From NCBI GenBank assembly GCA_965226745.1, contig CBDDDS010000002.1, forward strand, positions 193,311 to 257,310: DNA of 64,000 nucleotides, written 5' to 3'. A program made the position numbers and the translations under genes. Below are positions 11,710-39,515 of this stretch, one piece after another. Each line of letters begins with the position of its first letter. The first letter of the stretch is position 1. Below the pieces are notes generated by a model. That model was not told where the DNA came from. It searched no databases and worked only from the letters and a program-made list of their open reading frames with translations. Source of the DNA: Dehalococcoidia bacterium. Lineage in GTDB: Bacteria; Chloroflexota; Dehalococcoidia; Lucifugimonadales; SAR202-VII-2.

Positions 11710-12080
11710 CTTTTCAGTTCCGTTGCGGGGGTTGGAGTCTGGGGGCGTTGCCGCCAGCCCTGTGGGGCCGCTCACCCAGGCCATTGTATCACGGGCGGCG
11801 GCAACGCCTTCACGGGCCGTTCCACTAACCCTGGCCCGGGGGGTTGCAGCGGACTGGAATCCACCGACACAGCGGGGCCATTGTTCCGACGCCCCGAGCA
11901 CCTCGGTGCGCCGCGCCCTGCGTGGGCAGCGCCGCCGGCGGCCTCCCAAGGGCAACAGCGACGGGAGCGAGAGCGGAAGTCCACAACACCTCGACGCGAT
12001 AACAGGTAAGACTTCTGGATGGTGAGCGAGGTCTTGTTACGCCAATCAGCCGGATTTCGGTGGGGGTAGGCACGGAGCCA

Positions 12081-12169
12081 GTACAAAGGCGTAATAGGGC
12101 GTAACGAGCCGTAATGAAGCTGTAAAGGATCTGTAATGGATCTGTAATGGAGCCGTAACGAACCGTAAT
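12081..12169. repeat. phased tandem array, 9 cores (GTAC, then GTAAT/C/A)
   Basis: Core starts are 12081, 12091, 12101, 12111, 12122, 12133, 12144, 12155 and 12165. The intervals are 10,10,10,11,11,11,11,10 bp. Confidence 0.85.
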
Positions 12170-12365
12170 GGAGCGGGATGGCTCCAAGGAGCCTGCCTCA
12201 CAACGGCAGTCGCTCCGGTCCCAGCCTTCCTCGGAGGGTTGTGGGCCTGGGGATGTTCCCCAAGCCCCTGCCACAGGGGGATTCTCTGTGGTTAGCCCCC
12301 AGTACATACGTTATGCGGCAGGCTCCAAGGAAGAGAAGCGGGCCGGGGGCCCACTTCCTGGCGAT

Positions 12366-12394
12366 ACCATAGCACAATAGTTCGGATTTTGCAA
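12366..12394 (-). promoter_or_regulatory. promoter-like motif at the distal end of copy A
   Basis: On the minus strand: TTGCAA, a 17-nt spacer, then tgtgcTATGGT (an extended -10 style TGn). The same arrangement is present in copy B. Confidence 0.35.
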
Positions 12395-12456
12395 TGGGGG
12401 GGGGCGCCTCCTAACCTGCCCTCAAGTACCGAGAGAGAGAGGGGCTTATGGTCGCG

Positions 12457-12555
12457 GGCACCGTTATCCCACCTAGCCCCCTCCAACGTTTGGGGTTACA
12501 GGGGGACACGCTGTTCCCCCGGCGGGGGCTGCGCCCCCTGCACCCTGCTTGGGGG
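12457..12555 (+). repeat. double-hairpin module H2
   Basis: GGGGGACAcgcTGTTCCCCC followed by GGGGGCtgcGCCCCC. It is homologous to 38850..38950 (inverted) and 15819..15925. Confidence 0.75.
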
Positions 12556-12587
12556 ACGGAGGAGGCGCGTCCGAACCCCCTTCCTAG

Positions 12588-38608: not shown

Positions 38609-38644
38609 AGAGGGGAGGCGGCGCCAGGTTAAGAGGGATGCCTC

Positions 38645-38655
38645 ATTGTAGCACA
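38645..38655 (-). promoter_or_regulatory. extended -10 promoter candidate for metG
   Basis: The minus strand reads TGTGCTACAAT about 37 nt upstream of the metG ATG. Confidence 0.35.
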
Positions 38656-38782
38656 GGGCCGGTGAAAGCATCAGGCCGCTTATGCTCTCGGGACTCGAGA
38701 CTCTTGCATTACCTGTATCACGCGCAAATGGCTCCATGCTTACCGACGACACCTCGCGTCACCTGGCGGTGTGCGACTCTGT

Positions 38783-38810
38783 CCCTGCCCCCGACTACAG
38801 GGCAGCCTGG
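38783..38810. repeat. REP-like H3 hairpin copy
   Basis: CCCTGCCCCCGACTACAGGGCAGCCTGG. Confidence 0.55.
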
Positions 38811-38849
38811 GAAGCGCCCAGACGCGCCAACGCAAGCTCGCCCCCGTCT

Positions 38850-38950
38850 CCCAAGCGGTGTGCAGGGGGCGCAGCCCCCGCCGGGGGTACAGCGTGTACC
38901 CCTGTACCCAGAAACGTCGGAGGGTGGGCAGGTGGGACAACGGCGCAGGC
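38850..38950 (-). repeat. double-hairpin module H2 (inverted copy)
   Basis: GGGGGCgcaGCCCCC and GGGGTACAgcgTGTACCCC. Colinear with the reverse complement of 12457..12555. Confidence 0.75.
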
Positions 38951-39012
38951 CAAAGCAGACCCTCCGCCGAAGGAGGGCGCAAGCCAAAACAAATCCATCC
39001 GCCCAGGTTATG
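38951..39012 (-). repeat. partial linker module M6
   Basis: CAGACCCTCCgccgaaGGAGGGCGCAAGCC... is homologous to 35757..35800. Confidence 0.6.
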
Positions 39013-39023
39013 CCCCACCCCCC

Positions 39024-39052
39024 TTGCAAAATACGAACTATTGTGCTACGGT
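39024..39052 (+). promoter_or_regulatory. promoter-like motif at the distal end of copy B
   Basis: TTGCAA, a 17-nt spacer, then tgtgcTACGGT. It is orthologous to 12366..12394 and points through the element toward the ABC operon. Confidence 0.35.
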
Positions 39053-39250
39053 ACCCCCATGAAGTGGGCCACCGGCCCGCTTCTCTTTCTCGGAGCCTGC
39101 CGCATATGTTCGGACAGGGGGATTCTCTGTGGACTCCCCCTGTGGCAGGGGCGCTGAGGGAACAACCCAAGGGGCAAGACCCTCCGAGGAAGGCTGGGAC
39201 CGGAGCGAATGCCGTTGTAAAGCACAGGCTCTTTGGAGCCATCCCGCTCC

Positions 39251-39349
39251 GTAACGACTCGTAACGACTCGTAACAACTAGGTAACGGTTCGTAACGGCT
39301 CCGTAACGACTCGTAACAGCTTTGTAACGGCCTGTAACGCCTTTGTAAT
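39251..39349. repeat. phased tandem array, 10 cores (GTAAC x9, GTAAT x1 on the + strand)
   Basis: Core starts are 39251, 39261, 39271, 39282, 39292, 39303, 39313, 39324, 39334 and 39345. The intervals are 10,10,11,10,11,10,11,10,11 bp. Confidence 0.85.
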
Positions 39350-39515
39350 GGCTCCGTGCCTGCAAACCCCGAAATCTGGCTGACAAGCGTTACAAAGCCT
39401 CGCTCACCGTCCGGAAGTCTTACCTGTTGTCACATGGAGGTGCTATAGATTACCGCTCCCGTTCCCGCCGCTTTAGCCCTTGGTGCGCCCACCGGCTCTC
39501 GCCTGCTCTGCGCTC

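Follow-up and report, generated by a model that had tools for sequence, protein, structure and literature searches.

Mirror-image tandem arrays opposed by a solitary motif in a promoter-bearing, RNA-like intergenic element of an uncultured Dehalococcoidia lineage

Several families of modular intergenic repeats have been described in bacteria, among them BOX of Streptococcus pneumoniae, BIME/REP, Correia/NEMIS and ERIC, and some of these families carry promoters. Repeated motifs are also found in the protein-sponge small RNAs CsrB/RsmZ and CrcZ, in the parC centromere of plasmid R1, whose ten 11-bp iterons are bound by ParR, in ToxI-like type III antitoxin RNAs, where tandem repeats of ~34-45 nt lie directly upstream of the endoribonuclease toxin gene, and in operators such as the CpxR boxes (GTAAA-N5-GTAAA). 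GlnR boxes, gTnAc-n6-GaAAC, are bound head-to-tail by four or more protomers (PMC10235972). The element described here occurs twice, as inverted copies A and B, in a 64,000-nt stretch of a Dehalococcoidia bacterium (assembly GCA_965226745.1, contig CBDDDS010000002.1, positions 193,311 to 257,310; hereafter the window), and each copy contains a tandem array of short units built on a pentamer core and, outside the array, a solitary pentamer. An earlier inspection of the letters (the sequence-only reading) had held that every core of the array has its central base flipped between the two copies and that the solitary motif is flipped the opposite way. This pattern is real and non-random, and it is a property of a promoter-bearing, RNA-like multicopy element that carries one of three array cassettes; A and B are two members of this lineage-specific, dispersed intergenic family of ~630 bp.

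The units are quasi-palindromes (CCGTNACGG) that are asymmetric only at their centre. On the + strand, the array of copy A begins with a degenerate unit (AGTAC at 12080-12084, with a GTAC core at 12081), followed by the cores GTAAT, GTAAC, GTAAT, GTAAA, GTAAT, GTAAT, GTAAC and GTAAT, which start at 12091, 12101, 12111, 12122, 12133, 12144, 12155 and 12165, respectively. The array of copy B, read on the same strand (39251-39349), has nine GTAAC and one GTAAT, which become ATTAC followed by nine GTTAC when the copy is reverse-complemented. Thus, in the common scaffold orientation the cores differ systematically between the copies, being GTAAN in A and RTTAC in B, and the solitary motif shows the opposite difference, reading GTTAC in A (12036-12040) and GTAAC in B (39389-39393), as had been claimed. 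Of all inverted matches that link the solitary region to the array, the longest, 8 bp in A (GTTACGCC/GGCGTAAC) and 11 bp in B (CGTTACAAAGC/GCTTTGTAACG), also stand up against shuffled sequences (P=0.007 for A; 11 reached in 0/300 shuffles for B).

Whether the units of the two copies correspond to one another depends on the spacers, which had been reported to match in sequence and order. A unit-level alignment supports this claim, with a score of 19 in scaffold orientation against a mean of 10.3 when the spacer order is shuffled (P=0.024); a global alignment of the A and B spacers at the nucleotide level, in contrast, is not significant. The argument from spacer order is only moderately strong because every spacer shares a GRNNYC-like vocabulary. 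The possibility that the entire array was merely inverted between the GGAGCC/GGCTCC repeats that flank it, one of the findings that the sequence-only reading had named as its undoing, is rejected, as the spacers, the 33-nt segment beyond the array and the flanking hairpin all keep the scaffold orientation (the spacers score -1 with the array inverted).

The two copies belong to a much larger set. A 20-mer from the best-conserved block (GGTCCCAGCCTTCCTCGGAG) has two chance matches and, in OZ253584.1, the 3.09-Mb chromosome of a Dehalococcoidia metagenome-assembled genome, 28 exact ones, and a search with a family profile adds five copies, bringing the number there to 33, scattered along the chromosome and all intergenic. 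The same profile finds only two copies in the window, both intergenic, and one further copy, L043, which is the ortholog of L011, comes from another metagenome; a genome holds ~35 copies, each with one of three interchangeable repeat types. When translations of the element were compared with 5.8 billion proteins in search of miscalled open reading frames (ORFs), the one match was itself another element copy. In the metagenome and viral collections scanned with the 20-mer, the only matches were chance ones inside coding regions. In Rfam, the single match at the gathering threshold across the 64 kb is a tRNA and leaves the element unmatched, and at E<=10 both copies gave only weak chance matches far under the cut-offs. 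Orthologous loci of A or B were not found among the fetched OZ253584.1 loci. On these searches, the family is previously undescribed and restricted to an uncultured Dehalococcoidia lineage. Importantly, both the purity of the arrays and their opposition to the solitary motif recur in 34 further copies and are thus not due to chance.

Arrays are 4-13 units of 10/11 nt long and fall into three cassettes: A, with the scaffold core GTAAN (NUUAC in the sense of the predicted RNA), in 17 copies; B, with RYTAC (GUAAY), in 11; and C, with GTCGY (GCGAC), in eight. They are nearly pure, the exceptions being one flipped first unit (L018) and a few decayed units. B is a true in-place mirror of A, since both, when read as GTAAY, show a conserved GTAA and a variable fifth base. 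Comparison of the window genome with OZ253584.1 shows each of the two to be kept nearly unit for unit, which indicates that both cassettes are old. The conserved domain that precedes the array does not follow this division: its distance is 0.119 within an array type and 0.132 between types, and in its clustering window B groups with the A-type copies L004 and L005, and window A with C-type copies. Cassettes have therefore been exchanged between copies. On this comparative evidence, the flip in the window is a difference between two cassette alleles and did not arise at the two window loci, so that few independent events underlie the observation that every core is flipped. The proposal that the flipped units are orthologous and cannot be explained by neutral drift is thus upheld in another form, that of old cassettes, whereas its implication of an in-place flip at the two loci is not. 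Within the family, the orthologs L011 (2470-2600) and L043 (2787-2900) differ by one unit, 11 versus 10, in a promoter-proximal (GGAACC-GTAAC)n run, and the array thus acts as a variable-number tandem repeat at its promoter-proximal end.

The distribution of cassettes also bears on the proposal that the motif is selected to lie on a given chromosomal strand relative to replication or transcription, whatever the orientation of the scaffold. This proposal arose from the fact that, in the window, the + strand reads GTAAY in each array and GTTAC in each solitary motif. With replichores assigned from the GC skew of the fetched OZ253584.1 loci (switches near 0.75 and 2.6 Mb), the two replichores of that chromosome give ratios of GTAAY to RTTAC on the + strand of 7:7 and 3:5. 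Furthermore, both polarities are found with either element orientation, itself unbiased, and under the same orientation of the element's own promoter. These counts refute strand-polar recognition, which retains hardly any probability; the agreement of the two window arrays is a 1-in-2 coincidence, and the finding has no bearing on replication-strand biology.

The relationship between the solitary motif and the array, in contrast, holds across the family. Of the copies whose 3' module contains CAGCC and whose homologous position holds a GTWAY, nine of ten of type A and all nine of type B have a solitary motif of the polarity opposite to their array (Fisher P about 1e-4, calculated by hand and with relatedness ignored). 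A minimal pair is provided by window A (type A) and copy L024b (type B), in which the identical flanks CTTGT[T/A]ACGCCAATCAGCC enclose either centre, giving CTTGTTACGCCAATCAGCC in the former and CTTGTAACGCCAATCAGCC in the latter. The complementarity spans 8-12 nt in about 14 copies, and the partner unit varies between copies. Thermodynamic folding of 20 A and B copies on both strands pairs the solitary centre with the array at a probability of 0.94-1.00 in 15 of them on the promoter-driven strand and in 17 on the scaffold strand; in L004, L008 and L025 the probability for the promoter-driven strand is only 0.22-0.28. An in-silico flip of the centre removes the solitary-array pairing and, on the promoter-driven strand, costs 1.6-4.1 kcal/mol. 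Collectively, these computations support the suggestion that the outlier could pair with the array cores in several alternative registers. A different arrangement is seen in the divergent copy L003, where four GTGAC pentamers (about 2100-2290; spacing 10, 22 and 10) on the side of the solitary motif face a short array beginning GTCAC, GTCGC, that is, a third complementary state in a two-sided arrangement.

The arrays themselves are predicted to remain unfolded. On their own, real arrays fold no better than shuffled ones (z from -1.0 to +0.8, the latter for array A) and give diffuse ensembles. When half of the pentamers were inverted in place, all 200 of 200 random variants of each of four arrays became more stable, by 10-16 kcal/mol. 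Since mixed arrays self-pair strongly, uniform polarity would prevent the array from folding, so that its sole perfect partner would be the solitary motif, an argument that holds for RNA and equally for single-stranded DNA. On these folding predictions, the strong self-pairing of mixed intermediates would explain why only two uniform mirror states are seen.

Another explanation of the same purity is that the array is a functionless minisatellite riding in a selfish dispersed repeat, its purity and its association with the solitary motif being inherited from two or three founder cassettes and not selected, with quasi-palindrome centres flipping readily by hairpin-mediated minute inversion or template switching. 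The existence of only three cassette types that move as blocks, the variation in unit number between orthologous copies (11 in L011, 10 in L043), the true inversions of hairpin loops elsewhere in the element (39114-39143 versus 12271-12302; L013 and L026) and a genome full of other modular intergenic repeats all accord with it. However, the identity of individual units is kept across about 15 copies and two genomes, which speaks against free turnover, and either centre base is found between identical flanks, in each case the one that suits the array type (window A versus L024b). Moreover, a pentamer with arms of 2-4 bp and a 1-nt centre cannot make the hairpin that a minute inversion requires, and the far stronger self-pairing of all 200 random mixed arrays offers a plausible selective reason for purity. 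This explanation is unlikely, but it is a serious rival.

Conservation starts exactly at a promoter-like site, called in L023 as TTGCAA-17 nt-TATAGT with an upstream TG, and this pattern is present in 22 places, pointing toward the array. The order of parts is a sigma-70-like promoter, a 5' hairpin, a conserved domain of ~215 nt, a small hairpin (GGAGCCAUCCCGCUCC in the predicted transcript), the array, a conserved segment of ~33 nt and the solitary pentamer, which always lies 6 nt from CAGCC. The 5' hairpin comprises 10 bp followed by a pyrimidine tract and was flagged as terminator-like. In the RNAalifold consensus, with 98% of cells paired, one helix joins the pyrimidine tract to a purine tract (GAGGAAGG..GGGA) and another joins CCUGCCGCA to UGUGGCAGG. 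At positions 47, 49 and 52, the base facing a G switches between C and U in 6-14 copies, and a number of U.G pairs have become fixed. Because such persistent pairs would be A.C mismatches on the complementary strand, only the promoter-driven strand supports this fold. The full-length predicted RNAs fold with z=-4.9 (A) and z=-3.6 (B). Coordinates of these parts are given in Table 1.

Table 1. Positions of the two element copies and their predicted parts in the window
Feature	Position	Strand	Basis and details
Copy A, full similarity extent	11934..12562	- (predicted transcript)	blastn, 74% over 665 columns; nhmmer family profile, E=5e-64
Copy A, promoter-like site	12366..12394	-	-35 TTGCAA 12394..12389, 17-nt spacer, -10 TATGGT 12371..12366, TG upstream
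Copy A, conserved domain	12187..12359	-	5' hairpin 12357..12335, long pyrimidine/purine helix, CCUGCCGCA/UGUGGCAGG helix; RNAalifold
Copy A, array-bordering hairpin	12170..12185	-	GGAGC-CAUCCC-GCUCC; RNAalifold
Copy A, array (type A), 9 units, first degenerate	12081..12169	-	10/11-nt spacing; TRF; NUUAC in predicted RNA, GTAAN on + strand
Copy A, conserved array-to-solitary segment	12047..12079	-	CAGCCGGATTTCGG...GGCACGGAGCC; alignments
Copy A, solitary motif, predicted 3' arm of helix with unit 12098-12105	12033..12043	-	pairing probability 0.99; centre flip costs 3.2 kcal/mol
Copy B	38841..39496	+ (predicted transcript)	blastn; nhmmer, E=1.4e-66
Copy B, promoter-like site	39024..39052	+	TTGCAA 39024-39029, 17-nt spacer, TACGGT 39047-39052, TG 39044-39045
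Copy B, conserved domain	39059..39234	+	5' hairpin 39061-39083; hairpin 39114-39143, loop inverted relative to A
Copy B, array-bordering hairpin	39235..39250	+	GGAGCCATCCCGCTCC; RNAalifold
Copy B, array (type B), 10 units	39251..39349	+	alternating 10/11-nt spacing; TRF; GUAAY in predicted RNA
Copy B, conserved array-to-solitary segment	39350..39382	+	alignments
Copy B, solitary motif, predicted 3' arm of 11-bp helix with 39319-39329	39388..39398	+	pairing probability 1.00; flip costs 4.1 kcal/mol

Two other roles for a conserved, promoter-bearing segment were considered and rejected. The predicted start coincides with an ATG, and some copies contain a long ORF; indels of 1 and 2 nt and loop inversions among copies nevertheless break every frame, and the frameshifting indels exclude a coding function. 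The assembly calls a 208-aa ORF (38638-39264, +) that spans the promoter, the conserved domain and the start of the array of copy B; it has no Pfam match, its sole database relative is another element copy, and it is almost certainly spurious. A cis-regulatory leader or riboswitch, or a leader shared by the family, is rejected because only 17 of 28 copies are followed by a gene in the same orientation, and the neighbours are unrelated (an EVE-domain gene, an ABC ATPase).

The hairpins of the element show inversions of their own. The loop of a hairpin in the conserved domain is inverted between copy B (39114-39143) and copy A (12271-12302), reading ACAGGGGGA-uucucuguggac-UCCCCCUGU in B, L004 and L005 and GGGGG-cuaaccacagagaau-CCCCC in the remaining copies, and both array types are found with it. 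Because of this inversion, 18 nt (CAGGGGGATTCTCTGTGG) are identical on the + strand of the window in the two inverted copies. This looks like a hairpin-mediated minute inversion or a template switch. Likewise, in L013 and L026 the loop of the array-bordering hairpin is flipped as a whole, from GGAGC[CATCCC]GCTCC to GGAGC[GGGATG]GCTCC. At the other end, a second box resembling a promoter, its -10 extended by TG (ttgtcacatggaggTGcTATAGA), is located in the 3' module of A, B, L003, L015, L017 and L026, at 39426-39453 in B and at about 11985-12010 in A, and faces the downstream gene (the ABC ATPase in B, the EVE-domain gene in A).

The computed family membership, anatomy, cassette types, array/solitary association and folding predictions are best accommodated if the element behaves like a promoter-driven small-RNA gene whose tail is closed by the solitary-motif helix and whose open, uniform-polarity array displays repeated motifs, a model to which we assign a probability of roughly 0.45. 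Its own sigma-70-type promoter would drive a transcript from the - strand in A and from the + strand in B, consisting of a stable hairpin, the folded domain of ~215 nt and a tail made of the array, the ~33-nt segment and the solitary pentamer. The solitary pentamer would have its opposite polarity because it supplies the 3' arm for a helix of 8-12 bp, which can form with one or another of several units and closes the tail. Each array would keep to one polarity because a mixture creates perfect 9-nt inverted repeats, with which the array would fold on itself, whereas an unmixed array would remain single-stranded and expose its repeated motifs, for which there would be a single perfect partner. 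Mixed states would thus be disfavoured, and only the two uniform mirror states would persist and be moved between copies as blocks by recombination. From this arrangement we infer transcription of the element, formation of the helix in vivo and a binder of the open array.

Several observations weigh against the small-RNA model. The solitary motif of L012 has the same sense as its array and L005 lacks the pentamer, and neither pairs; additionally, the helix is missing from the GTCGY cassette (eight copies) and from seven copies with an alternative 3' module, so that it is not indispensable. The helix is predicted equally well on either strand and may thus be a hairpin at the DNA level, and the mean unit spacing of A and B (~10.5 nt) fits the phasing of double-stranded DNA and is unexplained by an RNA. 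The A and B cassettes may trace to one ancient event, in which case the association rests on few independent events. Double-sided covariation is limited to three base pairs, a scarcity due to the close relatedness of the copies. The promoter is predicted solely from its match to the consensus, and a search for an intrinsic terminator 3' of the solitary motif found none, the sole terminator-like hairpin being the 5' hairpin past the promoter.

The spacing leads to the second serious rival, in which the array is an operator in duplex DNA whose protein, of the OmpR/PhoB winged-helix or ParR-like kind, binds the asymmetric GTAAY head-to-tail on one face of the helix. Sites would have to be oriented alike for cooperative contacts, the solitary motif would be an inverted site that caps or loops the complex, A and B would be one operator in both polarities, and C would serve a paralogous protein. 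The alternation of 10 and 11 bp, with means of 10.4-10.7 for A and B, matches the helical repeat of DNA; the variability is mirror-symmetric (GTAA and a variable Y on the strand that reads GTAAY), as is natural for duplex recognition; and a similar motif is found in published operators such as the GlnR box, the direct repeats of 5-7 nt with a period of 10-11 bp being those of OmpR/PhoB tandem operators. However, the arrays lie ~215-320 nt downstream of the sole recognisable promoter and not at -35 or upstream of it, where such operators are placed, and tandem GTAAY-N5-6-GTAAY pairs were not found outside the element arrays in the ~300 kb examined. There is thus no sign of a regulon, at whose promoters such sites would recur. 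Independent protein sites would not need the complementarity between the solitary motif and a unit to reach 8-12 nt, past the pentamer, and the C cassette has GTTAA at the solitary position instead of an inverted GTCGC. An RNA-level function is favoured over a DNA operator with moderate confidence, and we regard the operator as improbable, at about the same level as the functionless repeat.

If the arrays are read as RNA, A-type and B-type transcripts could also be partners that anneal in trans through many short helices, for mutual sponging or assembly, so that flips were selected because each adds a helix. Consistent with this possibility, A x B arrays are predicted to gain -21 to -27 kcal/mol as a hetero-duplex, against only -5 to -10 kcal/mol for A x A, B x B or any combination with C, and the gain falls to -5.7 after an in-silico flip; both types are maintained in both genomes, and two of three tandem element pairs consist of a B followed by an A. 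Nevertheless, the gain arises from the cores by construction, and the real spacers make no significant contribution (P=0.18 for the window pair and 0.03 for a pair from OZ253584.1); co-evolved spacers were rejected on the former value. Furthermore, none of the 36 copies carries a type complementary to the C cassette. Annealing in trans is quite unlikely. In its strongest version, to which we give equally little credence, A and B would be a deliberately complementary, multivalent RNA pair held by about ten phased short helices, with the solitary motif as an in-cis competitor or nucleation site and GTCGY as an orthogonal third channel.

Regarding genomic context, the whole copies align in inverted orientation (11934-12562 against 39496-38841) with 74% identity over about 630-665 bp in a blastn self-comparison, and a narrower MAFFT block of ~390-400 columns has a mean column identity of 84%. 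Copy A lies between an EVE-domain gene and a glutaredoxin gene, and copy B between the genes for methionyl-tRNA synthetase and an ABC ATPase; the flanking genes of A and B are unrelated to each other, so that paralogous neighbours are rejected. The window itself is part of a 3.33-Mb metagenomic contig. Three pairs of elements stand in tandem on the same strand, ~600-700 bp apart (L002 2688-3510, L024 1706-2611 and L004 7148-8000), and their members are always of unlike array type (B then A, B then A, and C then A, respectively). The window also contains other short dispersed intergenic repeat families, consisting of GC-rich hairpin modules, e.g., GTACAGGGGGAC..GTACCCCCGGCGGGGGCTGCGCCCCCTGCACCC, at 14860-15005/35939-35791, 15821-16030/35760-35425/38957-38845, 12499-12552/15875-15928, 17856-17957/19096-19197, 5380-5451/38742-38812 and 3848-3941/3995-4088. 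These modules often adjoin the element at its promoter side, and the genome is rich in modular repeats.

If transcribed as predicted, the element would represent an undescribed multicopy RNA family with a folded body and an open tandem array in discrete mirror-image forms. If it is indeed the cost of mixed states that separates the mirror forms, they would illustrate cleanly, in a natural setting, how quasi-palindromic repeats are constrained to uniform polarity, and the arrays, the solitary motif and the three cassettes would provide a handle for finding an RNA- or DNA-binding partner. Should the element be only a selfish repeat, it would still document recurrent inversions of centres and loops, together with cassette shuffling, in bacterial intergenic repeats.

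Compared with the known systems, a ToxI-like type III toxin-antitoxin RNA is rejected, since the units are only 10/11 nt long and the flanking genes are unrelated and vary among copies. Hallmarks of a miniature inverted-repeat transposable element were judged by eye: the ends (CCTTGCAAAATAC... and ...ACATACAATCAAAGG) share about 8/16 inverted positions, with boundaries blurred by adjoining repeat modules, and no target-site duplication was recognised at ends blurred in this way. Similar to parC, the element has about ten direct repeats of ~11 bp adjoining a promoter, but it is present in ~35 chromosomal copies, has three motif types and lacks adjacent parMR genes. With OmpR/PhoB operators, as represented by the CpxR and GlnR boxes, it shares a GTnAC/GTAAA pentamer repeated head-to-tail, co-oriented and with a 10-11-bp period; however, it has 8-13 units instead of 2-6, located ~215-320 nt downstream of the promoter, its motif arrays are confined to the element, and its solitary site has extended complementarity to a unit. 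As in CsrB/RsmZ and CrcZ, a predicted stand-alone, promoter-driven RNA would present many short, accessible, single-stranded motifs, but here the motifs are tandem and regular in period, are not shown in hairpin loops, and belong to a multicopy family with mirror and third types. Finally, like BOX-type repeats, which BIME also exemplify, the element has dozens of dispersed intergenic copies, a variable internal tandem subunit (4-13 per copy, with orthologs one unit apart), alternative 3' modules, a predicted stable RNA structure and recombination mosaics. It has no sequence similarity to these families, and it differs from them in its units of only 10/11 nt, in the conserved full promoter at one edge and in its three discrete cassettes, two of which are mirror images of each other.

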